Below, piece by piece: positions 1,878 through 31,709 of a stretch of 64,000 nt of DNA. Source of the DNA: an uncultured Spirochaetota bacterium (GTDB taxonomy: Bacteria > Spirochaetota > Spirochaetia > JAFGXN01). The stretch covers positions 6,394-70,393 of the forward strand of contig CALXKN010000004.1 in assembly GCA_944388995.1 (NCBI GenBank), in the 5' to 3' direction. The notes beneath the pieces are model-generated. The model did not search any database, was not told the origin of the DNA, and saw only the letters and a list, made by a program, of their open reading frames with translations. The stretch's first letter is position 1; the number at the start of each line of letters is the position of its first letter. A program made the translations under genes and the position numbers.

Positions 1878-2914
1878 AAATCAAAACATCCGGATCCCTC
1901 GGAAAGAGGATTCTCGCCTTTCTCAGAAGTCTTTTCTATGAAGAAACGGATTCTCCGGAGGTGAAGACCGTCAAAGTCGTTTCTTATACGGTTTTGACCG
2001 TCATTGCTGTCTGTATTCTTTTGTCAAGCATTCTGTTTTCTGCTCTTTTTGAAGAGAGGGAAACCGTTTCCGTTCCGAACGTTGTCGGTATGACGTTGGA
2101 TGAAGCGATGGAGACAATGCAAAATCATTTTCTCCGCGTTAAAATTAATCGAGTCAATACAGAAGATTTGACTGAGAAAGGGGTTGTGGTTTCACAAACC
2201 AAAACTCCCGGTTCAGTTGTCAAAGTCGATTATACGGTCGTTTTGAATGTCGGAAAGGGACCTGTTTCGGATAAAATCACTGATTTTTCGGGGTGGGACA
2301 TTGACGACGTGGAACCTTTTTTGAAAGCGTATCAATCGCAGCTGACGTTGTTGTATCCGCTTTCATATGTCGTCAATAACCGTCCGCGGGGGACCGTTTT
2401 GGGACAGGATCCTCCTGCCGGGACGGAGATTTACGGCGATATTTCACTGCGCCTGTTTGTCTCCGGAGGTCCGGACTTGTACCGGACGTCGATTGAAAAT
2501 TTTGTCGGAAAATCTTACCGCGAAACGATGCTGACGCTTGCAAACCGGAATATTGCGTTTCGTTTTACGGCAGAGGCTCCGCAAACGCGGCAGTCGCCGT
2601 TTACCATCTCTTCACAATCCGTCGAACCCGGTGAATTGATTTCCGTTTTCGAAGGCTGTGTGTTTAACGTCGTTCCGCCGACTTATGTCTCTGCTGATCG
2701 GGTTTTCGGTTTAGTTTCCGCAGCCGTTGAACGCCCGCGTGTTCCCGTTTTACTGAAGGTGACGCGAACCCCTGTCAATCAACGGGAAGAAGATTATTTT
2801 TCCATGCAGTTTATGAGCGATGTTATTTCTTTTCCGTATTACGATGCGCCGGGAACCGTTTACACGATTTATATGGACGAAACTCCCGTTACAATTCATC
2901 AAGTTGCAAAATGA
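1874..2914 (+). CDS. membrane-anchored PASTA-domain protein (no kinase or PBP domain)
   Basis: N-terminal TM helix (VLTVIAVCILLSSILFSALF) followed by PASTA-like repeats (VPNVVGMTLDEAMETM...GSVVKVDYTVVLNVGKGP); ATGA overlap with fmt. Confidence 0.55.
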   Translation: MKIKTSGSLGKRILAFLRSLFYEETDSPEVKTVKVVSYTVLTVIAVCILLSSILFSALFEERETVSVPNVVGMTLDEAMETMQNHFLRVKINRVNTEDLTEKGVVVSQTKTPGSVVKVDYTVVLNVGKGPVSDKITDFSGWDIDDVEPFLKAYQSQLTLLYPLSYVVNNRPRGTVLGQDPPAGTEIYGDISLRLFVSGGPDLYRTSIENFVGKSYRETMLTLANRNIAFRFTAEAPQTRQSPFTISSQSVEPGELISVFEGCVFNVVPPTYVSADRVFGLVSAAVERPRVPVLLKVTRTPVNQREEDYFSMQFMSDVISFPYYDAPGTVYTIYMDETPVTIHQVAK

Positions 2915-3834
2915 ACCGGGCAATTCAGGGATTTCTTCTTTTTATCGCAGTACTCGCTGTTTCGTGCGGAATCGCTCCGCCGAAAGAGATGAAGGCACAG
3001 CTGTTTTTGGATTTTCTTGATACAACGTCCGATGAGATCGTGGATTCGTTCAACGATTTCTCCGCGCTGGATCTATTGAAGCCGTATTGGCTGCCGAATC
3101 CTCTGCTGTGGCATTTTCCGCCGTCTCAAGAAATTCTATTTGAGAAGAGCGCTTTTCCCTCCGAAGAGCTTGACGATTCCGTCATGTTCGCTTTAAATGG
3201 AAATGGTGAAATCGTTTTAAATCGGAATTTTTATTTTACCGCATGGGGGAAAACACTTGTTTACTCGTTCGATAAAATCCGCTGGTTTGCGCTGGACGGC
3301 GATCCGCGGGAGTATGAGGCGTTTGTTCCCGACATTCGTTTCCGGTCGCAGCGCGACGGCGGGCGGCTGCACTTCCGTTTTACGTGGGCTGTACGCGAAG
3401 GAAATTCACCGAAACCGGTGCCGCTGAGGGATGCGGTTGTTTTTTCCGAACGGAAAGAAATTTCTCTCTTGCCGAATCAGGTCTGTTACTCCACCGACAA
3501 AAACGACCGCCCTGTTGATCTGCATTCTCATGTGTTTTTTGTTCCGAACGGAACGAAAGTCGCGTTTAAATGGGATTTTGACTGTAATTTTTTGCAGCTG
3601 CATCAGCTTGACGGCTGCCGCACGGTTTTGAAGCCTCTCAAAGATTTATGGTTTTATCGGAAAAATAGAATTATTTCTCTCGGTTTTGACGGGAAAAATT
3701 ACGGAGATACCTTTTTTAGTTATCGGTTTGCAATGAAACAATCGGTAACAACGGATGATACAGGTTATCCGACCGTTTGTCAACGGATTCTTTTAGTGAA
3801 TAAAAAATTTCCACATATTGATGTTGCCGACTGA
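2911..3834 (+). CDS. hypothetical lipoprotein
   Basis: Signal peptide with lipobox-like LAVSCG; no recognisable catalytic motifs. Confidence 0.45.
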   Translation: MNRAIQGFLLFIAVLAVSCGIAPPKEMKAQLFLDFLDTTSDEIVDSFNDFSALDLLKPYWLPNPLLWHFPPSQEILFEKSAFPSEELDDSVMFALNGNGEIVLNRNFYFTAWGKTLVYSFDKIRWFALDGDPREYEAFVPDIRFRSQRDGGRLHFRFTWAVREGNSPKPVPLRDAVVFSERKEISLLPNQVCYSTDKNDRPVDLHSHVFFVPNGTKVAFKWDFDCNFLQLHQLDGCRTVLKPLKDLWFYRKNRIISLGFDGKNYGDTFFSYRFAMKQSVTTDDTGYPTVCQRILLVNKKFPHIDVAD

Positions 3835-3888
3835 CCGTCGCGATTCGCTCTAAAACGGTCATTTTCGGTTTTAATGAAAGGAGCGAAT

Positions 3889-5178
3889 ATGAGAGAAATT
3901 AAATGTCCTAAGTGCGGTGAGGTGTTTCAGGCTGATGAAGCCGGATATGCGGCTATTGTCAAACAGGTCAGAGACGAAGAGTTTTCGAGGGAACTCGCGG
4001 CAAAAGAGTCGCAGTTTCAATCCGATAAAGAAAGTGCATTGCGTTTGACCCGCCTCGAAACCGAAAACCGTTTTAAGGATGATTTAAACAGAAAAGACGG
4101 TGAAATCGAGAAATTGAAATCGGAAATTGAAGCCGCGCGATTGGCAGGAAAGGCGACCGTCAGCGAATTGACTGCTGAAAAAGATCGGCGGATCGCCGAC
4201 TTGCAGGGCAAACTTGATGCCCTTTCTAAAGACAAAGAGATTGAAATTCACACTCTTCTCAAAGAAAAAGAACGGGAACTTGCAGAAAAAGAGAGTCGTA
4301 TTCTTTTGCTCAGCGGTGAACAAGAGCTTTTTAAAAAAGAGGTTTTACTGAAAGAACAGTCGTTGAAAGAGCAGTACGAAAATGAATTGAAAAACAAAGA
4401 TGAAGAAATCGAACGGCTGAAAAACTATAAACTGAAGCAGTCGACAAAAATGGTCGGCGAAAGTTTGGAACACCACTGCGAAACGGAGTTCAATCGCCTC
4501 CGTGCAACCGGTTTTCAAAGCGCATACTTTGAAAAGGATAACGACGCCAAACTCGGCAGCAAAGGCGACTACATTTATCGAGATTACGATCAAAACGGAA
4601 CAGAGTTTGTATCGATCATGTTTGAAATGAAAAATGAGGTCGAAACAACAGCGTCGAAAAAGAAAAATACGGACTTTTTAAAGGAATTGGATAAAGACCG
4701 CCGCCAAAAAAATTGCGAATACGCCGTTCTTGTTTCCATGCTGGAGCCGGAAAACGAGTTATACAATACGGGAATAGTCGATGTATCGCACTTATTTGAG
4801 AAGATGTATGTGATTCGGCCGCAGTTTTTTATTCCGATGATTACTTTATTGCGCAATGCAGCGCTTCATTCGCTCGAATATCGTAACGAATTGGCTCTTA
4901 TCAAAGCTCAAAATATCGATATTTCGAATTTTGAAGCGGAAATGAACGACTTTAAGGATAAGTTTTCAAAAAATTTTCGTCTTGCAAGCGAAAAATTCAA
5001 AAAAGCCATTGAAGAAATCGACAAAACAATCGAACATCTGCGGAAAACAAAAGAGGCGTTGCTGTCATCAGAAAATAATTTGCGGTTGGCAAACAGCAAA
5101 GCGGAGGGTTTAACGATTCAGCGGTTGACGCGAAACAATCCGACCATGCAGGCCAAATTCGATGAGTTAAAAAAGTAA
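3889..5178 (+). CDS. DUF2130-family protein: N-terminal zinc ribbon, long coiled coil, C-terminal PD-(D/E)xK-like domain
   Basis: [13 protein letters not shown] (C-x2-C), heptad-rich K/E coiled coil, C-terminal GDYIYRD...FEMK (D...ExK). AGGAG RBS 5 nt before ATG 3889; ORF-track start at 3874 includes the RBS. Confidence 0.6.
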
Positions 5179-5209
5179 GCGCAGCGCATTTTCTTTTTGC
5201 GCTTTAATT
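5177..5209. terminator. possible bidirectional stem-loop between convergent genes
   Basis: aagcgca...tgcgctt inverted repeat with T-rich loop, no clean downstream T-tract. Confidence 0.25.
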
Positions 5210-7345
5210 CAAATCGATCCAACCTGATTGCTCTATCACTTTGTTAATAACGCCGTCGGCGGTTTCAAAAACGAAACGCATCGGTTCCAATGTGCGGATG
5301 TGTACCCTGCGGATGTCTTCATCCGAAATAACGACATTGACCGTCCCGTTGGAGATTGAATCGATTCGGCAATGGTAACCGCGGACTTCTTTCGGCGATT
5401 CGGCGTAAATGTAGGCCTTATCGAAAAGAAATTCATACAGCAGCAGCGGCGCCTGAAAACGGCAGTGTTGCCTGATTCCGTAATTATGGGCTGTTTTGTA
5501 TTGGCTTTCCCTGCTTCGGTTGATGAGGGTCGCCATTGCGTTGAGGGCGTTCACCAAATCTTCTTCGCATCCTGTTTTTTCATAAAAAGCGGTGGCCGCT
5601 TTCAGGTAGACAGCCGTCGGATCGGTCGGAAAAGAAACTCCGGCATACAGCGGTGTGCTGTATGCGGAATGAAAATACGGCGAAGCGTTCTCTTTCTGAA
5701 TATGGCACTCTGCCGCTTTCAGCAGTTTTGCTCCGAGCAGAAAAAATTCCGTTTTCAATTCATCCGAAAAATCGGTCTGCGGTTCGGACAGTTCAAGAAA
5801 TTGTTTGGCTGAAATCAATGCTGTCGGCGGATAAGATTCATCGTAATTCGGTTTCTTGTTTTTCAAATAGGTGAGCGCTTTTATAAGGACATTCCGGCAC
5901 AGTTCGGCTTCTTCCGTTTTGCCGGCTTTTTGGTTCAGGTGCGACATTGCCATGAAAGAAGAAAGCAATAACGGAGAAGCTGTCAGATCTTCTTTTGTAT
6001 CGGGATAAAAGATATTCCCGCTGGGTAACTGCATTTTCGAAAAATAATCGGAAATCAGATTGGCAAAATCCAAATCATTGCTGATCAGAGCCAGATTGAG
6101 AAGGAGGAAGCCCGATTCGGGATCTTTAACGGCGTTTAAATTAAGTTTGTTGAGTTGCGGTTGAACAAAGATATTTTTGATAGCGGTAATCCGCTTTTCG
6201 GAAATCTCTTTAAATTCCGGAAAGAGTGCGCCGGCTGTAGCCGCCAAAATATCCGCATAGCAAATTTCATCGGAAGTTTGCGGAATCGGAGTTTTTACAG
6301 CCCGTTCCGCTTCCTGTCTGATAATTTCATGCGGATCTCTGAACACGGAAAATCCGGCGCTCGTTGTCTGTCCTTTTTCGTTCTGTACAGATAACAGATA
6401 AACACCCGGCGCCGCCATTTCTTCGAATGCGAACTGAATCGTCGGCGGTTCTTCCGGTTCGGATTTTTCTTCTTCCGCATTGGGATTTTTCGGCTGAGGT
6501 GTTCTTTCGAAAACAGTTTTGCTGCCGTCAGGGGCGGTCAGCGTCAGTTTAACCGGCGCCTTTGTATGAATCCGACCGGTAACGGTTTCTCCGATAAAGT
6601 AATATGTCCGTTTTAAATCAATGGTCGGAATCCCCGAAATATCAAGAATGACATTTTTCAGACAGTCGTTTTCGGGAATTGCGGCCAGAGAAAAGGCCCA
6701 TCTGACAGTTTCATTGTATTCCATTTGTCGGAAATTTTCTTTTGCCAATAAGTCGATTTTGATTGTCTGCGTTTTTTGATCAAACTGTAAATAGGAAATG
6801 CGCTCAACGGGACTCGGACAGGCAACGGCAAACATTTTCCTTCCGGGAGTTGTGAAACAACCCCACAGAGTGTTTTCTTCCTGCCGCAGGATTGTCGGGT
6901 AGTAAACTTCTTCTGAGGGGCGGTCAAGAGAGTTTCCGATATCAAATCCCAAGAGAATGGAGACATCGTGAGGGGCAGCCTCTTTATGTGAATTTTTTTT
7001 CATTTCGACTTCAATGATAAAAGAGCGGGCAGCGATATTCGGTCTGATGAATAACGAGTATTTGACACGATCCTTAACTGCGTAAAATTTATAGGGATTA
7101 ATCTCTTCTGCTTCAAGTTCCAGTTTTTCGTTGTCAATCAGAATAGCCGGTCCGGCAAGTGAGTCGGCTCGGAAAAAAAGCGGCGGCTGTTCTCTTGAAA
7201 GCCAAAGGCGGTCGAATCTTGTAAAATGATCGTCCGGATAGTTGTTTCCGTCCGGATAAACGGCCCGGATATAAACTTGCGGGTGTACGGAAAGGGTAAA
7301 AAGCGCTGAAAGAATAAATAATAAAATTCCGTTCTTTTTTTTCAT
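5204..7345 (-). CDS. large secreted hypothetical protein (713 aa)
   Basis: N-terminal signal peptide MKKKNGILLFILSALFTLSV; long ORF with coding-like composition; no recognisable motif. Confidence 0.5.
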   Translation of the reverse strand: MKKKNGILLFILSALFTLSVHPQVYIRAVYPDGNNYPDDHFTRFDRLWLSREQPPLFFRADSLAGPAILIDNEKLELEAEEINPYKFYAVKDRVKYSLFIRPNIAARSFIIEVEMKKNSHKEAAPHDVSILLGFDIGNSLDRPSEEVYYPTILRQEENTLWGCFTTPGRKMFAVACPSPVERISYLQFDQKTQTIKIDLLAKENFRQMEYNETVRWAFSLAAIPENDCLKNVILDISGIPTIDLKRTYYFIGETVTGRIHTKAPVKLTLTAPDGSKTVFERTPQPKNPNAEEEKSEPEEPPTIQFAFEEMAAPGVYLLSVQNEKGQTTSAGFSVFRDPHEIIRQEAERAVKTPIPQTSDEICYADILAATAGALFPEFKEISEKRITAIKNIFVQPQLNKLNLNAVKDPESGFLLLNLALISNDLDFANLISDYFSKMQLPSGNIFYPDTKEDLTASPLLLSSFMAMSHLNQKAGKTEEAELCRNVLIKALTYLKNKKPNYDESYPPTALISAKQFLELSEPQTDFSDELKTEFFLLGAKLLKAAECHIQKENASPYFHSAYSTPLYAGVSFPTDPTAVYLKAATAFYEKTGCEEDLVNALNAMATLINRSRESQYKTAHNYGIRQHCRFQAPLLLYEFLFDKAYIYAESPKEVRGYHCRIDSISNGTVNVVISDEDIRRVHIRTLEPMRFVFETADGVINKVIEQSGWIDLN

Positions 7346-7385
7346 GATTTATTTTATTTTATTTTTTTGTCCTTGTCAATAAAAA

Positions 7386-8141
7386 TCAGAAATCGACGGT
7401 GAGTCCGTCGTAGGCCAATTCCGTTCCGGGCGGCAATTCGGCGCTGACCGCTTCGTGTTCCAGATTGTGGCAGATGTGGGTGAAATAAACTTTCTCTGCT
7501 CCGATTTTTCCGGCGATTTCCGCTGCCTGAGGCAGGGAGAGGTGGGTCGGATGGGGGCGCCAGCGCAGGGCGTTTAAAACCAAGACGCGGCAGCCGGAGG
7601 CGGCTTTCAGAGTTTCGGCCGGAATGCGGAGGGCGTCGGTGATATAAACCAAGCCGCCGATTCGGTATCCGAAAATCCGCAGGTGTCCGTGATAAACCGG
7701 CAGCGGCACGATCTGACGGCCGCCGATCTCAAAAGGCCTCCGAACGCGGTGCGGCGCCAGCGACGGAAATCCGCCTCCGGCCTGTTTCGGCGGGGTGAAG
7801 GCGTAGGGAAAGGTGCGCCGCAGCGTTTTCAGCGTTTCGCGGCTGCCGTAAACCGGAAGCGGCCGGCGCGCGGTAAAAACCCGCAGGTCGTCGAGACCGA
7901 AGATGTGATCGGCGTGCGCATGGGTGTAGAGGACGGCGTCGACGCGGTCAAGTTTTTCCCGCAGAGCCTGAAGACGGAATTCAGGCGGCGTATCGATGAG
8001 CCACTTCTCTCCGCCGGTCTCCAGCAAAGCGCCGCAACGGGTGCGTTTGTTTTTCGGGTTTTCGGAGCGGCACACGGAACAGCGGCATCCGATAACGGGA
8101 ATACCGTGGGACGTTCCCGTTCCCAGAAAAGTCAGTCTCAT
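7386..8141 (-). CDS. MBL-fold metallo-hydrolase
   Basis: LGTGTSHGIP...HAHADHIFGLDDL metallo-beta-lactamase HxHxDH motif; last gene of the prfA-prmC-relA-ispD array. Confidence 0.7.
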   Translation of the reverse strand: MRLTFLGTGTSHGIPVIGCRCSVCRSENPKNKRTRCGALLETGGEKWLIDTPPEFRLQALREKLDRVDAVLYTHAHADHIFGLDDLRVFTARRPLPVYGSRETLKTLRRTFPYAFTPPKQAGGGFPSLAPHRVRRPFEIGGRQIVPLPVYHGHLRIFGYRIGGLVYITDALRIPAETLKAASGCRVLVLNALRWRPHPTHLSLPQAAEIAGKIGAEKVYFTHICHNLEHEAVSAELPPGTELAYDGLTVDF

Positions 8142-8833
8142 TCCGTCCGCTCCGTATTCCGCCGTTTTAAAATCGCTTCGGCAATGAAGAGGTCTTCGGG
8201 ACGGGTGATTTTGATGTTTTGCGGATCGCCTTCCGCGACGGCGCAGGAAAATCCGGCGTCAAAAAAGAGGGAAGAGTCGTCGGTGTACGTTTTTCCCGAT
8301 CCTTCGGCCAGCCGGTGCGCTTCCCGCAGTTTTTCCGTCGGAAACTTTTGCGGCAGCTGCACATTGAAAAGCCGGTCGCGGCGCAGAATGCGGCCGATTT
8401 CGTTTGATTCGGTTTTTTCCAAAACCGTAAACGGAATTTCGCAGCCGGGCGTCACCGCTTCCGCCGGGTGACGGAGAACCGCCGCAACCGTTTCCCGGGT
8501 GACCAACGGCCGCGCCGTTTCATGCAGCAGCGTTACGGGGAACGAACAGCGGGTAAGTCCGGCCGCCACCGATTGCCGGCGGGTTTCTCCCCCCGGCTGC
8601 CACAGAAGCGGCGGAAGTTCGATTTTCAGAGCGGCGATGATGTTTTCAATCTCCTTTCGGGTGCCTTCTCTGTAAACAATGACGATCTCTCCGATTTCGG
8701 GAAATCCGGATAACGCTTCCAATGCGTATGCAAAAACCGGTTTTCCGTTTAACTCAAGGAACTGTTTCGGGCAGCTGCCTCCCATGCGGCTGCCGCTGCC
8801 GCCGCTGAGTAAAACCGCACTGACGGATTTCAT
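8138..8833 (-). CDS. ispD: 2-C-methyl-D-erythritol 4-phosphate cytidylyltransferase
   Basis: AVLLSGGSGSRMGGSCPKQFLELNGKPV N-terminal nucleotidyltransferase signature; about 230 aa. Confidence 0.8.
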   Translation of the reverse strand: MKSVSAVLLSGGSGSRMGGSCPKQFLELNGKPVFAYALEALSGFPEIGEIVIVYREGTRKEIENIIAALKIELPPLLWQPGGETRRQSVAAGLTRCSFPVTLLHETARPLVTRETVAAVLRHPAEAVTPGCEIPFTVLEKTESNEIGRILRRDRLFNVQLPQKFPTEKLREAHRLAEGSGKTYTDDSSLFFDAGFSCAVAEGDPQNIKITRPEDLFIAEAILKRRNTERTE

Positions 8834-10839
8834 GATTCAATGCTCCGAATTTGAAGGACGTTGGGAATTGCCGACACTCCTTTTTTGACTTTATACAAAT
8901 CTTTGGCGCGGTTAAGTTCGATCATAAATTCTCCTTCCAGAAGATTTTTTTCGTTTTCATGAAGACTGCCGCGCAGTAAATGACCGGAAAACGGTTTCAG
9001 AATGTTTTCGATTTCTGAAAAGAGATTGCTGACCTCTTTGCTTAAAATCGAAAAGGTGTAAATTTTCCGGGGGGAGGAAATTTCCCATTCAACTTCAATC
9101 AGACGGTCTTTGATGTTTTCGATGTGCTGGAGATTTTTGCAGTCGGTACGGTGAACGATGATGCCGCGGCTGTGTGAAATGTAGCCGATAATCGAATCTC
9201 CGGGGGCAGGGCGGCAGCAGGTGGCGGTCTTGATTAAAAAGTTTTTCTCTTTATTGACCGAAAGTCCCAGCCGCGCTTTATCGAAAAATTCGCGGACAAC
9301 AGCGCCCGGTTCGGCGGCGGCCGTCTTTTTTCCTTTTTTTGATTCGCCCGGCAACACAGCGGGCGCTTTTTTCTTCGCAATAATCGACGATTCGATGATG
9401 TAATTTTCATCGTTTTTATTGAGCCACTGTCGGATCTTTGAACGGGCGGTGGAGGTTTTAACGAATTTCAGCCAGTTGATATTCGGTCGGGCGTTCGGCG
9501 ACGTTTGAATTTCCACCATTTGAGAGTTTTCCAGCGGCCGGTTAAGGGGCGAGATTTTTCCGTCGACTTTGGCTCCGATACAGTTGTTTCCCAGTTGAGT
9601 ATGGACCCGATAAGCAAAATCAATCGGTGTCGATCCTTTCGGCAGTTCGAGAATCTGTCCGGCCGGCGTAAAGACATAAATGGTGTCTTTCAGTAAATCC
9701 CTCTGAATTTCTTCCAAAAATTCGCGGGAGTTGTACATGGAGTTTTGCCACTCTTTCATTTTATTGATGACAGAGAGGTTGATGTCGTCTTCGCCGTTGA
9801 GTTTGATGTTTTTTTTATACGCCCAGTGGGCGGCGATGCCGTGCTCGGCCCGGTTGTGCATCTCTTCGGTTCGAATCTGAATTTCCAAAATCAATCCGTT
9901 GGGCACCATGACCGTTGTATGCAGACTTTGATATTTATTTGCTTTCGGCATGGCGATGTAATCTTTGAATTTCCCTTCAATCGGCGTGTAAAGGCTGTGA
10001 ACGAGCCCCATTAAAATGTAACACTCCTGATTGGTGCGGCAAATGACGCGGATGCCGAGAATATCGGAAATTTCCTGCAAGCTGATGTGCCGCCGTTTCG
10101 TCTTTCGGTAAATCGAATAGATGTGTTTGGTTCGCGCCGAGGTCGTGACTTTGTAGCCGGCTTTGCGCGCCTCGGACTTGATCTCTTCCTGTACGCGGTC
10201 GAGAGTTTCGCGGTATTTTTCAACGTCTTCGTGGACGGTCTGCCTGATGTGGTTGTACGCTTCCGGATTGAGTTCTTTGAACGCCAAATCCTCCAGCTCG
10301 GTTTTCATCCACGAAATTCCCAGTCTCTCGGCCAGCGGCGCATAGATGTCCAGGCACTCCCGCGCAAACCGTTTTGCCCGCTCCGGCGGCAGAAAATGAA
10401 CCGTCTGAATGTTGTGGAGTTTGTCCGCCAGTTTGATGATGATGACGCGGATGTCCTGCGTCATGGCAATCAGCATTTTGCGGATTGATTCGGCTTCCTG
10501 TTCGTTCTTTTTCGACAGTTTGACGCCGGAAATTTTTGTCACGCCGTTGACAAGCCGGGCGGTCTCCTCCCCGAAGTCGGTCTTTAATTCCTCAAGCGTG
10601 TAACCGGTGTCTTCCACGGTGTCATGAAGCAGGGCGGCCATTACGGTCATGGCGTCCATTTTCATATCAATGAGAATTAAGGCGACGCTTACGGGATGAA
10701 TGATGTACGGTTCTCCGCTGAGCCGTTTTTGACTGCCGTGGAGTTCGATCGCCTTGCTGAGCGCGGCCTGAATTTTCCGTCTGTCTTTTCCTGAAAAGAG
10801 GTCCAGTTTAGATTGAAAGGAGGTGATGATGGTTTCCAT
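8830..10839 (-). CDS. relA: bifunctional (p)ppGpp synthetase/hydrolase (RelA/SpoT family)
   Basis: HD domain (HPVSVALIL...LHDTVEDT), synthetase and TGS/ACT-like regions. ORF extends to 10914, but ATG at 10839 (METIIT) avoids a long overlap with prmC and is the more likely start. Confidence 0.85.
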   Translation of the reverse strand: METIITSFQSKLDLFSGKDRRKIQAALSKAIELHGSQKRLSGEPYIIHPVSVALILIDMKMDAMTVMAALLHDTVEDTGYTLEELKTDFGEETARLVNGVTKISGVKLSKKNEQEAESIRKMLIAMTQDIRVIIIKLADKLHNIQTVHFLPPERAKRFARECLDIYAPLAERLGISWMKTELEDLAFKELNPEAYNHIRQTVHEDVEKYRETLDRVQEEIKSEARKAGYKVTTSARTKHIYSIYRKTKRRHISLQEISDILGIRVICRTNQECYILMGLVHSLYTPIEGKFKDYIAMPKANKYQSLHTTVMVPNGLILEIQIRTEEMHNRAEHGIAAHWAYKKNIKLNGEDDINLSVINKMKEWQNSMYNSREFLEEIQRDLLKDTIYVFTPAGQILELPKGSTPIDFAYRVHTQLGNNCIGAKVDGKISPLNRPLENSQMVEIQTSPNARPNINWLKFVKTSTARSKIRQWLNKNDENYIIESSIIAKKKAPAVLPGESKKGKKTAAAEPGAVVREFFDKARLGLSVNKEKNFLIKTATCCRPAPGDSIIGYISHSRGIIVHRTDCKNLQHIENIKDRLIEVEWEISSPRKIYTFSILSKEVSNLFSEIENILKPFSGHLLRGSLHENEKNLLEGEFMIELNRAKDLYKVKKGVSAIPNVLQIRSIES

Positions 10840-11674
10840 AAACGACCCGTTCCCGACCGGCGGCGTCCCGCAGAACACCCGTTTCAGTATAACACAATTC
10901 TTCCATTTTGGCACGAATAATTTTCATTTGATGGGGAGCGGCTTCCAACAGCAGCCGCCCGCCCGGATTCAGTTTGACCGGGGCGCCGCTGAGAATGCGC
11001 AGGATCAGGGAAAGACCGTCGCCGCCGTCGGTAAGAGCCGGTTCCGGTTCATATAAATCGGGTTTGAGGTTTTCCATTTCCGTCAAACTGATATACGGCG
11101 GATTGGCGGCGATGATGTCGTAGTGTCCGGGAAGATTTTTCATCAAATCCCGTTTAAAGACAGTGATTTCCAATCCGAGACGGCGGAAATTCCTCCGCGC
11201 CACTTTTAACGCGGCTGCGCTGATATCCGATGCGCAGACCGTCCAACGCGGACGGGCGTTTTTCACCGCGGCGGCGATACAACCGGAACCGGTACAGAGA
11301 TCGAGCACCCGTAACGGCTTATTCTTGTCGCCGCTTTCAATGACGGCTTCGGCAAGCGTTTCGGTTTCCGATCGCGGAACCAAAACAGCCGGCGTGACCT
11401 CCAAATCCAAGCCGAAGAAACAACGGCTTTTGGTAATGTAAGCGACGGGAACGCCGGCAAGACGTCGTCTCAAAAAGCGGTTAAATCTCCGCTTTACGTT
11501 TTCCGGAACCTTCTCGTCAGCTGCCAGCAGCAACTGCGTCTGATTCAATCCCGATGCATATTCCGTAAGCAGCCGCACGTCCCACTGCGGTGAATCGAAA
11601 TTTTCAGGAGAACGCGGCGGCGGCGCCTCTTTCAGACGGCGAATTGCCTGCGTCTGCAGCTCTTTAAAAGTCAT
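10808..11674 (-). CDS. prmC: release factor glutamine N5-methyltransferase
   Basis: SAM-MTase motif [12 protein letters not shown] and IIAANPPYI (NPPY) motif; directly downstream of prfA. Confidence 0.85.
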
Positions 11675-12743
11675 CGTTGTCTGTCAACGCATCCTGGTTG
11701 GCGTTGATTTTCAACGCTTCGATTAATTCTTCCAGTTTTCCTTCCATTATTTGGTCGAGTTTATAAAGCGTTAAATTGATTCTGTGATCGGTCAGACGGT
11801 TCTGCGGAAAGTTGTATGTGCGAATCCGTTCGGAACGGTCTCCGCTTCCGACTTGGTGTTTTCGATCGGCGGCGCGTTCGGCTGCTTTTCGGGCTTCTTC
11901 CATTTCGTAAAGACGCGAGCGCAGCACCTTTATGGCCTTTGCCCGGTTTTTGATTTGCGACTTTTCGTCCTGGCAGGTAACCACCAATCCGGTCGGTAAG
12001 TGGGTGACGCGGACAGCCGAGTCGGTCGTATTGACGCTCTGCCCGCCGGGACCGGAGGAGCGGTAAACGTCGATTTTTAAGTCGTTTTCGTTGATTTCAA
12101 TGTCGGTTTCTTCCGCCTCCGGCAAAACGGCAACGGTAACGGCTGAAGTGTGGATGCGTCCGCCCGATTCGGTTGCGGGAATTCGCTGGACACGGTGAAC
12201 GCCGCTTTCATAACGCAAATCGCCGTAAACTTCCCGCCCGCTGATGTTGAAAATGATTTCTTTAAAACCGCCCAGTTCGTTTTCATTGGAGGAGAGCACT
12301 TCGATCTTCCATTTTCGGGCATCGGCGTAATACGAGTACATTCGGAAGAGATCGGCGGCAAAAAGAGCCGATTCGTCGCCTCCCGTCCCCGCGCGGATTT
12401 CCATAATAATATTTTTCAAATCGAGAGGATCCTTAGGAATCAGCAGTTTTTTTAACTCCGCTTCCAGAATTTCTCTCTTTTTTTCACATTCTTTTAAATC
12501 TTCTTTGGCCAGTTCCCGCATCTCTTCGTCGGAGTCGTCTGTCATCAGTTCACGGCAGTCGCTGATTTGACGTTCGGTTTCTCTGTATTCGTCAAATTTT
12601 TGTTTAATTTCAAACAACGCGGCGTGTTCCGTTGTCAGTTCGCGGTAGCGGTTGCGGTCGGCAATCACCGCGGGATCGGCCAGCAGCGTCTCGATTTTTT
12701 CAAAATTCTCGGCAATTTTTTCCAGTTTATCGAACATTCCCAT
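11664..12743 (-). CDS. prfA: peptide chain release factor 1
   Basis: [20 protein letters not shown] plus SGPGGQSVN (GGQ motif) and PxT-type domain layout. Confidence 0.9.
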
Positions 12744-12829
12744 GCCCTCATTATACGGTTTTTTTGATAAAAGACAAATGACCTGCGGAATTTTTTACCG
12801 TAAATCGAATCTGTTTCCGAATAAATAAT

Positions 12830-12858
12830 TTGACAACAGCGGAAAGTGCATGTATAAT
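12830..12858 (+). promoter_or_regulatory. sigma70-like promoter (TTGACA-17-TATAAT) for sialidase gene
   Basis: TTGACA at 12830-12835, 17-nt spacer, TATAAT at 12853-12858; AGGAG RBS at 12877-12881. Confidence 0.5.
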
Positions 12859-12888
12859 AGCAACAGAATTCATCACAGGAGTTTCTTT

Positions 12889-14538
12889 GTGAAAAAATTG
12901 ATTTTTTGTTTGGTAATAGCGCCGATGCTGATGTGTTCGGTTCCGTTTATAACGAAGTTTGAAATGGCTTACGCCGGAGACGCCTCCGGATCGGGATATT
13001 TCCGCATTCCCGCATTGCTGACGCTGCGCAGTCCGGACGGCTCCCTGACCGATACCGTTGTGGCTGTTCAGGACGTCCGTTTCTCCGGGTTGGGGGATTC
13101 TCCCGCCAATATCGATTCGGGAATTCGTATCTCGCACGACGCCGGAAAAACCTTTGACGGGCACCGTCTTCTGCCGCCGTACACCTTCCGCGACGTAGCG
13201 GACGGAGAAAAGCATAAAACCGATTCGGCTTCCTTTATCGACTGTTCCCTGTTTCAGAATTACGGAACGGGCCGGCTTTTCGTCGCGGTCAATATGTTCC
13301 CATGGGGGGGCGGCATCATGGGCGGAAACGTCGTAGAGGGTACGCCGTTTGTCGAAAAAGACGGCGAAACCGTGATGCTGCTGACGGCAACGAAGGCGGC
13401 GGTTGATTTGATTGAAAGCGGAGAAGCGCCGGATCCCGAAAAAATTTGGGAAAAAGCGGCGCGTCTGTCCGATGTCAAACGTCCCGGAACCTATTATGTG
13501 AAAAAAGTTTCCGAATATCCCGTTTATCAAACCGATGCTTCGGGAGGGATTTTGTCCGACGAAAACGGATATGCGCGGCTGAAAGAGCCGTTTAAGCGGG
13601 AAATTTACGATGAAAACGGCAGTTACACGAATTTCTTTCTGAACGAACGGTATGAAGTCTGCTATGACGACGGCAGCGATCGGGGGATTGTCCTGAAGGT
13701 TCAGCAAATCGGCGGCGGGGAAACCGTTCCGATGAACGTCGCGTTTAAATATTCGATTTTTCAAATGTTCCGCACGTCGTATAACTTTTTGATTTACAGC
13801 GACGATAAAGGGCAGACGTGGTCGGACCCGATCAATTTGACCGGTATGATTCAAAAACCGACGGAAAACGTCACATACCAAATCGCATCGCCGGGAACCG
13901 GTCTTTATGTTGACCGCGGTCCTTACAAAGGAAGGGTGATGTTTGCCTGCTATACGAATACATCTCCCGACGGAGCGGTGAAGGCGGAAGTGCCGGTTGC
14001 GGTTTGGTCGGATGATAACGGCAAGACGTGGACGCGCGGCGAGACGCTGACTGATTTGGGCGATACCGTCAAGATGTCGGAATCGGTTCTGACGGTGATG
14101 CCGGACGGCAATATCCGCATTTTTTCGCGGACGGGATCGAGCCGGGTCGGTACGGCGCTCTCCCTTGACGGCGGAAAAACGTGGCAGACGGCGCAAAAAA
14201 TTGAAAAAATTTACAATGCCGCAAGTTCCGGCTGTCAGATTACGGTTTTCAATTATCCGGTCAAGGTTGACGGCTGTGACGCGCTGGTTTTGGCCTCTCC
14301 GCAATCAGTTAAGGCGAGGGAAAAAGGGACATTGTGGATCGGTTTGATTCGCGACGGCTCGGGGAATGAAATCGACTGGACGCCGACGACGATTCACGAC
14401 GGCGCTTACGCCTACTCTTGCGCAACTCCGCTGGCCATTTATTCCGAAAGAGGATTCCCCGCGGTCGGTCTCTACGCCGAGTTGGAAGGCAACAAAATGC
14501 ATTACGGGATTCTTTCGTTTGATGATTTGCGCCGCTGA
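12889..14538 (+). CDS. exo-alpha-sialidase (neuraminidase), secreted
   Basis: YFRIPAL (FRIP motif), Asp-boxes SDDKGQTW, SDDNGKTW, SLDGGKTW; signal peptide after GTG 12889. ORF-track start 12850 lies inside the -10 box. Confidence 0.8.
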   Translation: MKKLIFCLVIAPMLMCSVPFITKFEMAYAGDASGSGYFRIPALLTLRSPDGSLTDTVVAVQDVRFSGLGDSPANIDSGIRISHDAGKTFDGHRLLPPYTFRDVADGEKHKTDSASFIDCSLFQNYGTGRLFVAVNMFPWGGGIMGGNVVEGTPFVEKDGETVMLLTATKAAVDLIESGEAPDPEKIWEKAARLSDVKRPGTYYVKKVSEYPVYQTDASGGILSDENGYARLKEPFKREIYDENGSYTNFFLNERYEVCYDDGSDRGIVLKVQQIGGGETVPMNVAFKYSIFQMFRTSYNFLIYSDDKGQTWSDPINLTGMIQKPTENVTYQIASPGTGLYVDRGPYKGRVMFACYTNTSPDGAVKAEVPVAVWSDDNGKTWTRGETLTDLGDTVKMSESVLTVMPDGNIRIFSRTGSSRVGTALSLDGGKTWQTAQKIEKIYNAASSGCQITVFNYPVKVDGCDALVLASPQSVKAREKGTLWIGLIRDGSGNEIDWTPTTIHDGAYAYSCATPLAIYSERGFPAVGLYAELEGNKMHYGILSFDDLRR

Positions 14539-14564
14539 CAGGAAGTTTCGGAGCGAAATTTGAA

Positions 14565-14618
14565 GGGAAGAAGCGTCCGCTTGCGGCGCTTCTTCCCTTT
14601 CTTTTTCTTTTTCTTTCG
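14565..14618 (+). terminator. rho-independent terminator after sialidase
   Basis: 11-bp perfect stem gggaagaagcg/cgcttcttccc followed by a tttctttttctttttctttc T-tract. Confidence 0.65.
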
Positions 14619-14665
14619 GCGGCAAACCGGTTGATTTCTTTTGAGATTCCGGGTAATCTGGATTT

Positions 14666-15535
14666 ATGAAAAACCCGGCTGCCGTTCTGATTCTTTCCGT
14701 TCTGTTTTCAGGCTGCGTGATTTGGAAAAGCGCCCGCGCCGTCGAAGCGCCGCAAACCGACGGAAAAATTACCGACAGGGCTCAAAAGATCGTCTTTGAC
14801 ACCGGAAAAGCGCCGGAATCTTCCGGCGTCGAGAACATCTTCGGCGATGAAAATTACTTTATCACCCACGGAGACAGTTTTTGTCCGTCGGCCGTTTACG
14901 GAATGCAGGTTGAGGACGGAGAGATTGTGCGCTATGACGAGTTCCGGCTGAAGGGCGGTACGCAATTCGACTGGGAAGATACGGCCTCTTCCGTCGATGA
15001 AAACGGAAACCGGACGCTCTATTTGGCCGATATCGGCGACAACTGGCGTTTCCGGACGCGGAAAACCATTTACGTTATCACGAAAATCGAAAACGACCGC
15101 GCCGTTGTCGACCGGAAAATCCGGTTCCGCTGTGTCAGGGACGGAAAAACCGTGTATGCCGATACCGAAGCGCTGTTTTTTTACGGCGGCGCGTTATATG
15201 TTATGACCAAAAATTCCGGAAAGGCGCTGATGTTCCGGATTCCGCTGGACGAAGGCGACCGCGTTGACGCCGAATTCGTGCAGTCGGTTTCCGTTCCCTC
15301 TCTCATTACCTCTGCGGCCGCAACCGACGACGGCGCTGTTTTGGCGGTTCTGTCGCTCGGGTACCTGTATTTTTACGATATTTCCGGCGGAACGGATAAC
15401 CTCGATTCAAAAGTGATAAAAATTTACTCCGCCTCCGGCTGCCGCCAGTGCGAAGGCGTTTGTTTTACCCGCGACGGAAGGGTCGCCGTCACTAACGAGC
15501 AAGGCGAACTCTATCTGTTTTCGGTTGACTTTTAA
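14666..15535 (+). CDS. hypothetical lipoprotein
   Basis: Signal peptide with LFSGC lipobox; no catalytic motif recognised. Confidence 0.45.
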   Translation: MKNPAAVLILSVLFSGCVIWKSARAVEAPQTDGKITDRAQKIVFDTGKAPESSGVENIFGDENYFITHGDSFCPSAVYGMQVEDGEIVRYDEFRLKGGTQFDWEDTASSVDENGNRTLYLADIGDNWRFRTRKTIYVITKIENDRAVVDRKIRFRCVRDGKTVYADTEALFFYGGALYVMTKNSGKALMFRIPLDEGDRVDAEFVQSVSVPSLITSAAATDDGAVLAVLSLGYLYFYDISGGTDNLDSKVIKIYSASGCRQCEGVCFTRDGRVAVTNEQGELYLFSVDF

Positions 15536-15795
15536 GGATTTTCGTTCTCTCCGGCAGCCGGACTCAGCCGTTCCAGTTCCTGCGTTAAACGAAGATTTTC
15601 GGCTTTCAGCGCTTCGATTTCTTTTGTGAGCGTTTGCACGGAAGAGACGGCTTTTTTATCGTTGGTGAAGTTGTCGATGACCCCATAGCGTTCCAGGAAG
15701 AAGAACAGAAGTATGTAAGGGACGACAATCAGAAATGAGACAAGGATGCGTCTGACGGTAGCTCTGTAGTCTTTATCTCCCGACGGTTTTGTCAT
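15532..15795 (-). CDS. small membrane protein with C-terminal coiled coil (FtsB/DivIC-like topology)
   Basis: 87 aa; single TM (ILVSFLIVVPYILLFFFL) followed by a leucine-zipper-like KEIEALKAENLRLTQELERL. Confidence 0.35.
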   Translation of the reverse strand: MTKPSGDKDYRATVRRILVSFLIVVPYILLFFFLERYGVIDNFTNDKKAVSSVQTLTKEIEALKAENLRLTQELERLSPAAGENENP

Positions 15796-15866
15796 GAAAG
15801 CCTCCTGTTTTGATATTAGCCTGTTTCTGGAAAAAAGTCAAATCCGAATTCATGGAAAATTCCTGC

Positions 15867-15895
15867 TTGATATTTGGGGAGGGGAGTGGTATAGT
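15867..15895 (+). promoter_or_regulatory. sigma70-like promoter (TTGATA-17-TATAGT)
   Basis: TTGATA 15867-15872, 17-nt spacer, TATAGT 15890-15895; about 30 nt upstream of ATG 15926 with AAGGAG RBS. Confidence 0.4.
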
Positions 15896-15925
15896 GAAAC
15901 TATATGGAATAAAAAGGAGTTCCCG

Positions 15926-17332
15926 ATGCAAAAACGACGTTTTTTTTTCTTTATATTTATCCTGTTTTCATTCCTGTGTTACGGGATTGATGCGGATTTT
16001 GATTTAACTCCGCTGACAGAAAACGGGGTTCTTGTCTATCCCACGCCTCCGAGGGCGTCCGGACAGAGCGATGTATTGGCTTTGCGTTGTGAGCCGATTG
16101 AAACCGTGCGTATTGCCGCCATCGGATTGGGAATGCGGGGATCTTCCATGACGCTGAGTTTTGCCCGTGTTCCGAACGCCGAAATTACCGTTATTTGCGA
16201 TAAAAATCCCGAAGCGGTTGAAAAGACGGTTCGGGCGTTAAAAGCCCTCGGTAAATCGGAACCTGTAACGTATACAGGCGAAGAAGATTGGAAAGAGATT
16301 TGCCGTCGCGGCGATGTTGATTTGATTTGCGTTTTTACGCCGTGGCCGCTGCACACTCCGATTGCTGTCGAGGCAATGAGAAACGGAAAGCACGTCGCAA
16401 TAGAAGTTCCGGCGGCATTGACATTGCGGGAGTGTTGGCAGTTGGTCGATACGGCTGAACAGACCCGCCGCCATTGTATTATGATGGAGAACTGCAATTA
16501 TGATTTTTTTGAAATGGCAATACTGAATATGGCGCAGCAGGGTGTTTTCGGAGAAATCGTTCACGTCGAAGGTGCGTATATCCACGATTTGCGCAGCATG
16601 CACTTTGCTTTGCCGGGGGAAGAGGGACATTATGAGGATATGTGGCGTCTTCAGGAGACTCGGAAACATACCGGGAATCTCTATCCGACGCACGGATTGG
16701 GACCTGTCGCTCATGTTTTGAATCTCCATCGTGGTGATAAAATCGATGTTCTGGTTTCGCTTTCCTCTGGACAATTCGGAATGAGTGCATTTGCCGAAAA
16801 TAAATTCGGTAAGGATTCCGAATTTGCGGGAGAGGATTATCGGTTGGGCGATATGAATACAACCGTTGCCAGAACCGTTAACGGAAAGACGGTTATGATT
16901 CAGCATGACGTGACTTCTCCCCGTCCGTACAGCCGTCTTCATACTGTCAGCGGAACAAAGGGATTTGCACAGAAATATCCGGTAGAGACCATTGCTTTGG
17001 ATCCAGATGCCCATCAGTCGGTTTCCAAGGCAAAATTAAAGGCACTTCTGAAAAAATACGAGCATCCGATTACCAGACAGTACGGACGGAAAGCAAAATC
17101 CGTCGGCGGGCATGGCGGAATGGATTATATTATGAACTGTCGAATCATTTACTGCCTGAATCACGGGCTGCCGATGGATCAGGATGTTTATGATGCGGCC
17201 GAATGGAGCGCTTTTTGTGAGTTGACGGAAGTTTCGGCCGAAAACAACGGAATTCCTGTTCGATTTCCCGATTTTACAAGAGGCGCATGGAACCGTTTGG
17301 ACGGTGTAAAATATTATATGGACGGAGAATGA
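15926..17332 (+). CDS. secreted Gfo/Idh/MocA-family NAD-dependent enzyme, GH109 (alpha-N-acetylgalactosaminidase)-like
   Basis: Signal peptide MQKRRFFFFIFILFSFLCYG, Rossmann motif IAAIGLGMRG, about 470 aa typical of GH109. ORF-track start 15794 is upstream of the RBS-supported ATG 15926. Confidence 0.55.
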   Translation: MQKRRFFFFIFILFSFLCYGIDADFDLTPLTENGVLVYPTPPRASGQSDVLALRCEPIETVRIAAIGLGMRGSSMTLSFARVPNAEITVICDKNPEAVEKTVRALKALGKSEPVTYTGEEDWKEICRRGDVDLICVFTPWPLHTPIAVEAMRNGKHVAIEVPAALTLRECWQLVDTAEQTRRHCIMMENCNYDFFEMAILNMAQQGVFGEIVHVEGAYIHDLRSMHFALPGEEGHYEDMWRLQETRKHTGNLYPTHGLGPVAHVLNLHRGDKIDVLVSLSSGQFGMSAFAENKFGKDSEFAGEDYRLGDMNTTVARTVNGKTVMIQHDVTSPRPYSRLHTVSGTKGFAQKYPVETIALDPDAHQSVSKAKLKALLKKYEHPITRQYGRKAKSVGGHGGMDYIMNCRIIYCLNHGLPMDQDVYDAAEWSAFCELTEVSAENNGIPVRFPDFTRGAWNRLDGVKYYMDGE

Positions 17333-30918: not shown

Positions 30919-31709
30919 AACGAGTTTTGATTCTTTTAATGGCAGCGCTCGCCGTTTCCGGATTCGCTTCGAACGCCGAAGAACGCATTGCCGAAGCTGA
31001 AAAATTTTTTCGGGAAGGTTTGGATTTAATGAAAACCGACGCTTCCGCGTCGGCTGCCGCGTTTGAAAAGAGCGAAGCGCTCTACCGCGCTTCTGCAGCC
31101 GAATTTCCCAATGCGGCGGTTTACCTCTGTCTCGGAAACGCGGCGTTTTTACGCCGGGATTTTCCGAAAGCCGTTTATTATTACCGCCAGTCGCAGTCGT
31201 TCAGCGACAACGCTTCCGTCCGCGCCGCTTTAAACGCAGCCCGCCTGCGTTTAAACGAAGAGATTGAAATTCCGATTCAGGTAAAAATTTTTGAAACCGT
31301 CTTCTTTCCTCACTACAGGATTCCGTTTTCCGTGCGTGCGGCTGCCTTTCCCGTACTGCTTTTCGCCCTGTCGCTTCTTGCCTCATCGGCGCTGCTTCGC
31401 GGCGGTTGGAAGCGGAAAAAGGCGGTCGCCGCCGTTTTGGCTTTTCTTTTGGCCGCGGACTTCCTTTCCGTGACTGTGACCGTTGCTGAAAAAACCTTCC
31501 GCAGGGAAGGGGTCATTTTGAGTGAAACCGAAGGCCGCTCCGGCAACCACCTTGCTTACGACCCCGCTTACCTGCGCCCGGTTCCGGCAGGAAGCGAAGT
31601 GACGGTGACTGACGAACGGTTCGGCTGGATGCGGATTGTTTTGCGGGACCGCTCGCGTTGCTGGGTTCCGAAAGAGGCCGTCTCACTGATCGGCGATCCG
31701 CTTCAGTAA
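30915..31709 (+). CDS. batE: BatE-like TPR/SH3-type protein
   Basis: Signal peptide, TPR-like helices, internal TMs and C-terminal SH3-like GWMRIVLRDRSRCWVPKEAV. Confidence 0.55.
   Translation: MKRVLILLMAALAVSGFASNAEERIAEAEKFFREGLDLMKTDASASAAAFEKSEALYRASAAEFPNAAVYLCLGNAAFLRRDFPKAVYYYRQSQSFSDNASVRAALNAARLRLNEEIEIPIQVKIFETVFFPHYRIPFSVRAAAFPVLLFALSLLASSALLRGGWKRKKAVAAVLAFLLAADFLSVTVTVAEKTFRREGVILSETEGRSGNHLAYDPAYLRPVPAGSEVTVTDERFGWMRIVLRDRSRCWVPKEAVSLIGDPLQ

Follow-up and report, generated by a model that had tools for sequence, protein, structure and literature searches.

In Bacteroides thetaiotaomicron, BT4243-GH109, an enzyme of glycoside hydrolase family 109 (GH109), cleaves the Tn antigen, blood-group A and the Forssman disaccharide, and it frees markedly more N-acetylgalactosamine (GalNAc) from sialyl-Tn-rich bovine submaxillary mucin once this has been treated with a sialidase (PMC11992087). 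Here we analysed a stretch of 64,000 nucleotides (64 kb) from an uncultured Spirochaetota bacterium (contig CALXKN010000004.1, positions 6,394 to 70,393; the whole of this stretch is hereafter called the window), in which a predicted secreted sialidase of glycoside hydrolase family 33 (GH33) lies close to a predicted secreted GH109 alpha-N-acetylgalactosaminidase. The same two activities, those of BT4243-GH109 and of the sialidase BT0455, act sequentially on sialyl-Tn-rich mucin in B. thetaiotaomicron (PMC11992087). The genetic arrangement is different. The B. thetaiotaomicron GH109 gene belongs to a polysaccharide utilisation locus which also contains GH2, M60-like peptidase, GalNAc kinase and SusC/D genes but not the sialidase gene, found at another place in the genome, whereas in the spirochaete the two glycosidases are neighbours, with no transport or catabolic genes nearby. 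We consider it likely that the window encodes two exported exo-glycosidases of known families which act in turn, the sialidase and then the GH109 enzyme, on host mucin-type glycans. The elements of the locus, in window positions, are the following.

12830..12858, plus strand: putative sigma-70-type promoter of the sialidase gene, TTGACA-17-TATAAT, agreeing with the consensus at 12 of 12 positions
12877..12891, plus strand: Shine-Dalgarno sequence AGGAG (12877-12881) and start codon GTG (12889-12891), as read from the sequence
12889..14538, plus strand: GH33 exo-alpha-sialidase, 549 amino acids (aa), with a signal sequence, a six-bladed propeller and an inserted domain at about aa 140-295
14562..14610, plus strand: predicted intrinsic terminator of the sialidase gene, with a 16-bp stem, a 7-nt loop and a T-rich tail (stem-loop 14562-14600)
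14666..15535, plus strand: propeller lipoprotein, 289 aa, with lipobox LFSG-C and a predicted beta-propeller of the YjiK/SdiA-regulated, 'phytase-like' type
15532..15795, minus strand: small membrane protein, 87 aa, a single transmembrane helix and then a leucine-zipper coiled coil, in an FtsB/DivIC-like layout
15867..15895, plus strand: promoter-like site of the GH109 gene, TTGATA-17-TATAGT with an extended -10 TG, 10 of 12 positions
15926..17332, plus strand: predicted GH109 NAD+-dependent alpha-N-acetylgalactosaminidase, 468 aa, with a signal sequence, a Rossmann motif and a GGHGG loop
17329..18120, plus strand: D-glutamate-cyclase-like hydro-lyase with Pfam and NCBIfam matches, whose ATG overlaps the GH109 stop codon (ATGA)

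The described sialidases which most resemble the 12889-14538 product are RgNanH, the anhydrosialidase of Ruminococcus gnavus (PDB 4x47), and NanI of Clostridium perfringens (PDB 2bf6/2vk5). RgNanH was the best sequence and fold match (E-value 3e-47; template modelling (TM) score 0.81). Further PDB matches were leech NanL (3e-45), NanI (2e-42; TM 0.83), NanJ (1e-34), NanB (5e-33), NanA (about 1e-28) and NanC (4e-27), all of them, like RgNanH, GH33 enzymes bearing an inserted domain; the Pfam match was to BNR_2 (6e-14). The AlphaFold model of the sialidase (predicted local distance difference test score, pLDDT, 88) gave TM scores of 0.79-0.84, normalised to the target, to RgNanH, NanI and NanA, and also superposed on NanB and NanC, with intramolecular and hydrolytic enzymes tying in fold score.

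The residues of the active site were mapped through HMMER alignments to the PDB sequences, taking the residue roles from RgNanH (PMC4510645). Specifically, the arginine triad R39 (in the FRIP motif), R414 and R477 aligns with RgNanH Arg257, Arg575 and Arg637, while the nucleophile Y509, its partner E398 and the acid/base D70 align with Tyr677, Glu559 and Asp282. The pocket for O4 and the N-acetyl group comprises R64, I117, D118 and Y355, the first three mapping from RgNanH Arg276, Ile338 and Asp339. Triad, nucleophile pair, acid/base and pocket residues are all invariant across a 15-sequence alignment of the sialidase family (A1). The FRIP motif reported in an earlier first-pass annotation of this DNA is found at aa 38-41; its count of three Asp-boxes has to be corrected to four, namely SHDAGKTF (aa 82-89; degenerate, with F for W), SDDKGQTW (aa 304-311), SDDNGKTW (aa 374-381) and SLDGGKTW (aa 425-432). 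The signal peptides which it had assigned to both enzymes are likewise recognisable: read directly from the sequence, both N-termini show a basic and then hydrophobic segment (MKKLIFCLVIAPMLMC... and MQKRRFFFFIFILFSFLC...), and both products would be exported.

The spirochaete sialidase has, in common with NanI, the six-bladed propeller, the inserted domain, the catalytic residues and, two places ahead of the catalytic Glu, a hydrophobic side chain (Leu in NanI, Met in the spirochaete protein). It differs from NanI in its overall sequence (only about 25% identity), in the absence of a lectin module at the N-terminus, in the greater length of the inserted region, in two insertions of 6 residues (one following FRIP, the other separating the nucleophile Tyr from the LYE motif), and in lacking the Tyr of the NanI 'EPYCQ' segment. 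With RgNanH it has in common the catalytic core and the O4/N-acetyl pocket; RgNanH Thr557, Tyr607 and Trp698 are not conserved, the CBM40 domain is missing (neither this nor any other lectin domain was found in the 549-aa protein), and no nan cluster or NanOx gene lies nearby. All together, the sequence matches, the aligned residues and the model place the 12889-14538 product among the GH33 exo-alpha-sialidases, in the NanI/RgNanH class, and show its catalytic set to be intact, in agreement with the family first proposed for it. Its clade is small and divergent, consisting of nine close relatives, beyond which identity drops to about 31-36% in metagenome-assembled genomes (MAGs) of Clostridia; there are hints in these comparisons of an old transfer from Firmicutes.

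The closest described counterparts of the 15926-17332 product are AmGH109A of Akkermansia muciniphila (PDB 6t2b; 2.5e-99) and NagA of Elizabethkingia (PDB 2ixa; 1e-70), both aligned over about 400-420 of the 468 residues. Generic Gfo/Idh/MocA oxidoreductases scored 3e-11 or worse, and over the Rossmann half only. The Pfam profile Glyco_hydro_109_C (PF21252) was matched at 2.4e-51 (174 bits against a cutoff of 27) and the Rossmann profile GFO_IDH_MocA (PF01408) at 3e-16; the NCBIfam matches were weak and sub-threshold, to dehydrogenases only. The sequence carries GLGMRG at aa 67-72, E188/N189, Y218, R241, Y253, H256, Y335 and GGHGG at aa 394-398 (H396). The alignment to 2ixa shows conservation of the residues corresponding to NagA E149, Y179, R213, Y225, H228 and Y307, which we take to be the sugar-binding residues listed by Liu et al. 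2007. In the alignment to 6t2b, Y218, H256 (in YPTHG) and H396 (in GGHGG) correspond to AmGH109A Tyr226, His259 and His404; as related in the passage of PMC10755693 that cites Teze et al. 2020, His404 of the GGHGG loop works at C3, Tyr226 at C2 and His259 at the glycosidic bond.

The NAD motif, the catalytic Tyr and His and the GGHGG His are therefore common to the spirochaete protein, AmGH109A and NagA. The differences lie in the spirochaete host and in the signal sequence, which reads as Sec-type or, possibly, lipoprotein-type, without a conserved twin-arginine: the twin-Arg of the window protein (MQKRRFFFF) is missing in the relatives (RKK, VKK, KKK), and the Cys of a possible lipobox occurs in four of five lineages. 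More than 8000 homologues were found, the nearest outside the spirochaete clade being 58-66% identical; those of them that are named are Bacteroidales/Marinilabiliales proteins, some called acetylgalactosaminidase by their source, and an old transfer of this gene from Bacteroidota is hinted at. In conclusion, judging from its sequence, 15926-17332 encodes a bona fide GH109 protein with conserved catalytic residues. The first-pass annotation, which had proposed a GH109-like Gfo/Idh/MocA protein starting at 15926, two genes past the sialidase, was right on all these points, the two intervening genes being 14666-15535 (plus strand) and 15532-15795 (minus strand). It had also named, as the finding that would speak against GH109, a generic oxidoreductase without the GH109 catalytic residues; Tyr, His and the GGHGG His are all kept.

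Two other readings concern the chemistry of the enzymes. According to one of them, which extends the NanOx-like oxidoreductase mentioned as an alternative in the first-pass annotation, the locus would encode a pathway for 2,7-anhydro-N-acetylneuraminic acid (2,7-anhydro-Neu5Ac), with the sialidase as an intramolecular trans-sialidase and the 15926-17332 product as a NanOx/YjhC-type enzyme converting 2,7-anhydro-Neu5Ac to Neu5Ac. The sialidase does have the R. gnavus anhydrosialidase as its best PDB match and the leech intramolecular trans-sialidase in third place, and NanOx belongs to the same Gfo/Idh/MocA superfamily (PMC7535918). Against this, hydrolytic NanI scores as well, ranks first when the C-terminal half of the sialidase is used as query, and ties in fold score. 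Formation of the 2,7-anhydro product and alpha2-3 specificity have been attributed to a Thr two positions before the catalytic Glu and to a Tyr/Trp hydrophobic stack over the active site, formed by Tyr607/Trp698 in RgNanH and Tyr632/Trp716 in NanC (PMC4510645, PMC4646021); RgNanH Thr557 forces the glycerol chain axial (PMC4510645). In the spirochaete sialidase, the position of Thr557 is taken by Met396 (motif K-M-S-E; hydrolytic NanI has Leu) and that of Tyr607 by Ser/Gly (motif A-S-S-G-C-Q). No Trp occurs in the 40 residues after Tyr509; the exact Trp698 column is not alignable, as the PDB alignments end before it, and a PDB search with the C-terminal 53 residues, made to place this column, returned nothing relevant. 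Because the three anhydro determinants are not kept, plain hydrolysis in an open active site, with release of free Neu5Ac, is the expected outcome. As for the second enzyme, YjhC (6o15) and RgNanOx (6z3b/c) match it at 4.4e-5 and 2.4e-4 over the Rossmann part only, compared with 2.5e-99 for GH109; it possesses the GGHGG loop and the GH109_C domain, and it carries an export signal, whereas NanOx acts on an imported substrate. The NanOx/anhydro-sialidase pathway was rejected on the poor scores and the missing determinant residues, and we find it scarcely credible. According to the other reading, the GH109-family protein would have a specificity or chemistry other than alpha-GalNAc hydrolysis (beta-acting, or on another N-acetylhexosamine) and the pair would target a different glycan. 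Substrate ranges do vary among GH109 members; however, every residue that could be mapped from 2ixa and 6t2b in complex with GalNAc is conserved, and the protein is 58-66% identical to members of a very large family whose named representatives are called acetylgalactosaminidase, which makes such a deviation very unlikely.

Proteins identical to those of the sialidase/GH109 region were found on many public metagenomic contigs. The nearest GTDB species representative (L007; CALXOJ01) is an uncultured Spirochaetes MAG and the further relatives are Spirochaetia/Spirochaetales MAGs. The source organism is an uncultured, probably gut-dwelling Spirochaetia bacterium. Five related spirochaete lineages share the gene order GH33, propeller lipoprotein, small minus-strand gene, GH109, with the following amino-acid identities to the window products.

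L008: GH33 66%, lipoprotein 64%, small protein 45%, GH109 77%
L009: GH33 65%, lipoprotein 64%, small protein 44%, GH109 76%
L091: GH33 62%, lipoprotein 51%, small protein 47%, GH109 73%
L090: GH33 56%, lipoprotein 48%, small protein 43%, GH109 70%

In the window, L008, L009 and L091, four lineages in all, the block sits in the same chromosomal surroundings. In L090, its upstream neighbour is priA rather than prfA, and in L009 and L091 the genes after GH109 are unlike those of the window. Since the gene order is kept while the upstream (L090) and downstream (L009, L091) neighbours have changed, these data argue for some pressure to keep the four-gene block together.

Outside the spirochaetes, of about 76 Clostridia loci that carry a related sialidase, only 3 have a GH109-like gene no more than 7 kb away, which gives the pairing slight backing at most. 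In these three MAGs of Acutalibacteraceae type (L071 3260-11530, L044 and L065), the GH109-like protein is signal-less and cytoplasmic, 381 aa long, and matches PF21252 at 6e-21; in L071, the one annotated locus of the three, GH39-like and GH5 genes are also found near the sialidase.

As to the expression signals, the longest sialidase open reading frame (ORF) opens at ATG 12850, inside the -10 hexamer of the putative promoter, and GTG 12889 lies seven bases past AGGAG; the gene callers used on public contigs give a product of 549 aa. Because ATG 12850 sits in the -10 box, AGGAG precedes the GTG and the public calls agree on 549 aa, we place the true start at GTG 12889, and the gene, as read from the sequence, is 12889-14538. 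The promoter, first described as near-consensus, is in fact a perfect match, the sole one in 64 kb; matches with at most one mismatch number 5 in the window, against 0.16 expected from shuffles. Equivalent promoter-like sites occur in the relatives (TTGACA-18-TATAAT in L007, TTGCAA-17-TATGAT in L008 and TTGCAA-17-TATTAT in L009). The strong terminator claimed after the sialidase is clearly present, its 16-bp stem and T-run folding at -30.9 kcal/mol (z = -6.5 against shuffles), a stability reached by none of 200 shuffled sequences. The sialidase gene is therefore predicted to be monocistronic, strongly promoted and strongly terminated.

The GH109 gene has a promoter-like site of its own, kept in L008 and L009 as TTGCTA/TTGTCA ... 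TGATATAAT, and AAGGAG stands 6 nt upstream of its ATG at 15926. A terminator scan found no convincing terminator after it. Because the GH109 stop overlaps the next start (ATGA), the sequence suggests that GH109 heads an operon running into the GLUCM-like, pxpBAC, D-amino-acid transaminase and alr genes. A single operon for both glycosidases was rejected, given the terminator past the sialidase and the minus-strand gene between the enzymes.

The plus-strand segment 17329-23141 itself contains the D-glutamate-cyclase-like hydro-lyase, a GLUCM-like_C protein, pxpB/A/C (5-oxoprolinase), a D-amino-acid/branched-chain aminotransferase and alanine racemase. Its gene content suggests a cluster for D-Glu, 5-oxoproline and D-Ala that is apparently transcribed together with a secreted glycosidase; the cyclase-pxp segment is missing after GH109 in L009 and L091.

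On these grounds, the following mechanism can be proposed. In the sialidase, the Arg39/Arg414/Arg477 triad would hold the sialoside, Tyr509, activated by Glu398, would attack it, and Asp70 would serve as acid/base; since the residues forcing an intramolecular attack are absent, water would resolve the intermediate and free Neu5Ac would be released. The GH109 enzyme, with tightly bound NAD+, would proceed through oxidation at C3, elimination of the aglycone, rehydration and reduction, using Tyr218, His256 and His396 of the GGHGG loop, and would thereby remove terminal alpha-GalNAc. Once outside the cytoplasm, the sialidase would take the sialic acid caps off O-glycans (sialyl-Tn, for example), and GH109 would then strip the exposed alpha-GalNAc of the Tn antigen or of blood-group A and Forssman-type caps. 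By analogy with the B. thetaiotaomicron enzymes, sequential action on sialyl-Tn or on alpha-GalNAc-capped O-glycans may be envisaged.

Several observations weigh against this proposal. The two genes are not co-transcribed, as a terminator follows the sialidase and an opposite-strand gene lies between them. The closest genome, L007, keeps the sialidase, the lipoprotein and the small gene without GH109 there, having in its place ldh, a transglutaminase-like gene and Big_2 surface proteins; because L007 keeps the sialidase in this way, the pair is dispensable as a unit. The lineages with the block are close relatives, with 86-89% identity in RelA for L008, L009 and L091 (the contigs that allow the comparison; that of L090 has neither relA nor prfA), and the synteny may for this reason be inherited rather than selected. 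The annotated parts of the 64-kb window hold no catabolic or transport genes for Neu5Ac or GalNAc (nan, aga). Specifically, none of the Pfam families expected for nanA, nanE, nanK or a sialic-acid transporter occurs among the 37 window ORFs scanned directly or the genes of window 5926-27332 annotated with precomputed Pfam matches on public contig L001, a scope which leaves aside a handful of ORFs of 180 aa or more that are short or overlap others, such as 62205-62810; this bears out the earlier statement that nanA/nanT genes are not adjacent. In addition, the supply of NAD+ to a Sec-exported GH109 enzyme is unexplained, the twin-Arg not being conserved; the host association of the lineage is taken solely from the record titles of related MAGs; and both enzymatic activities are predicted from sequence. 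Finally, the Akkermansia GH109 enzymes act on alpha-GalNAc caps and not on the Tn antigen (PMC11790493), and because characterised members differ in this way, Akkermansia from B. thetaiotaomicron, the precise GH109 substrate is not predictable here.

The same points feed an explanation in which the two genes are correctly classified neighbours with unrelated roles, and adjacency is inherited synteny. The sialidase might then serve host interaction or complement evasion, a role reportedly held by the sialidase of Treponema denticola, and GH109 might be tied to the downstream operon or to non-host alpha-GalNAc glycans. The separate transcription units, the absence of GH109 from the L007 site, the overlap of the GH109 stop with the next start, the close relationship of the genomes with the block and the rarity of the pairing in Clostridia, where the protein is cytoplasmic, all fit this explanation. 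What it accounts for less well is the persistence of the four-gene order at sialidase identities down to 56% and despite changed neighbours upstream (L090) and downstream (L009, L091); moreover, both products are predicted to be exported, and a characterised system is known in which the two activities follow one another on sialyl-Tn (PMC11992087). We therefore regard independent roles as rather unlikely and retain the successive action of the two exported glycosidases as the preferred reading. A literature search combining Treponema, GH33 and GH109 returned metagenome surveys only.

Both enzymes are ordinary members of GH33 and GH109, found in an under-studied host lineage. Gut spirochaetes are usually discussed as fibre fermenters. 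A conserved, exported pair of sialidase and alpha-N-acetylgalactosaminidase would enable at least one uncultured spirochaete lineage to remove the outer sugars from O-glycans of mucin type, a matter of relevance to host-microbe interaction and to cross-feeding. The sialidase clade is at most about 36% identical to anything outside it and has a compact, lectin-free architecture, and GH109 enzymes are of practical interest for blood-group A conversion.

The two genes between the enzymes were also analysed. The 289-aa lipoprotein has itself no sequence match in PDB, Pfam or NCBIfam, and its lipobox is kept in the relatives. Its AlphaFold model is a beta-propeller (pLDDT 93) for which Foldseek returned generic propellers, the best TM score being that of Escherichia coli YjiK (3qqz); the family profile matches YjiK at 3e-9, and 19 of 54 family members match PF13449 and 13 of 54 match PF06977. 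Eight acidic residues (E51, D70, D102, E104, D122, E168, E263 and E278) are invariant in the 54-sequence alignment. Two further homologues, a paralogue and a distant homologue, sit in unrelated, housekeeping contexts. An attractive but improbable idea is that the four genes form a dedicated cell-surface module for O-glycan trimming, with the YjiK-like lipoprotein, through its ring of invariant acidic residues, as an unrecognised third glycan-active component; it could then be a new hydrolase, esterase, lyase or lectin working between desialylation and alpha-GalNAc removal, and the lineage would be a host-mucin forager, not a fibre degrader. The 15532-15795 gene converges on the lipoprotein gene and diverges from GH109. 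Its 87-aa product has sub-threshold Pfam matches only (ZapB, DivIC and HALZ at E-values of about 2e-3 to 4e-3), and is found at the same position, with 43-75% identity, in L007, L008, L009, L090 and L091.

Upstream of the sialidase, on the minus strand, lie the housekeeping genes relA/spoT, prmC and prfA. Downstream of GH109, on the plus strand, the D-glutamate-cyclase-like, GLUCM-like and pxpB/A/C genes are followed by a class-IV aminotransferase, alr, a low-molecular-weight phosphatase and a MoxR/Bat cluster. The GC content is 0.49-0.53 across 12-18 kb, including the sialidase-GH109 block, and equals that of the flanks; no integrase or transposase was found among the block's neighbours in the Pfam scan and the public annotation. 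A horizontally acquired island was rejected on the native GC, the conserved context and the lack of a mobility gene among the neighbours, tRNAs and boundary repeats not having been scanned. The term 'island' in the first-pass annotation holds in the sense of a gene neighbourhood; it does not hold for a unit of native GC, with at least three transcription units and with GH109 missing at the site in the closest genome. An Rfam scan of the whole 64-kb window returned no RNA family.

A second sialidase paralogue, of 999 aa and with a catalytic domain 57% identical to the window sialidase, is encoded in a related spirochaete genome (that of L008; L010 8606-15416). It adjoins an 895-aa protein in which a NanM-like Kelch mutarotase is fused to a sodium:solute symporter, and several large ORFs without a Pfam match surround the two. 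The fusion is likely a sialic-acid uptake protein, and because it adjoins the 999-aa paralogue, sialic-acid uptake appears to exist in the clade.

Compared with L007, window 2863-16000 shows a mosaic of nucleotide identity, with 100% at 2863-5262, 9152-9451 and 11552-11851, 51-81% at 5561-8251 and 60-92% over the sialidase block, synteny stopping near 15800. Such a pattern points either to recombination between lineages or to assemblies that are strain-chimeric. The most divergent segment (51-76% identity, with near-identical flanks) is a 713-aa ORF at 5204-7345 on the minus strand, which has no Pfam or NCBIfam match and may be a fast-evolving surface protein.

Elsewhere in the window, an operon for an archaeal-type coenzyme A route in a bacterium occupies 31683-36510 on the minus strand. 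It comprises coaBC, a pyridoxal-phosphate decarboxylase of MfnA type (TIGR03812, 410 bits, cutoff 299), panB, a phosphopantothenate synthetase of archaeal type (NF010324, 328 bits, cutoff 227; PF02006) and a GHMP kinase resembling pantoate kinase (about 115 bits, short of the cutoffs); classical panC and coaA were not seen in the 64-kb window. Finally, a 1396-aa ORF at 56896-61086 on the plus strand combines helical repeats of apolipoprotein-like type with a DUF6115 at its C-terminus, and has the look of a giant coiled-coil protein.

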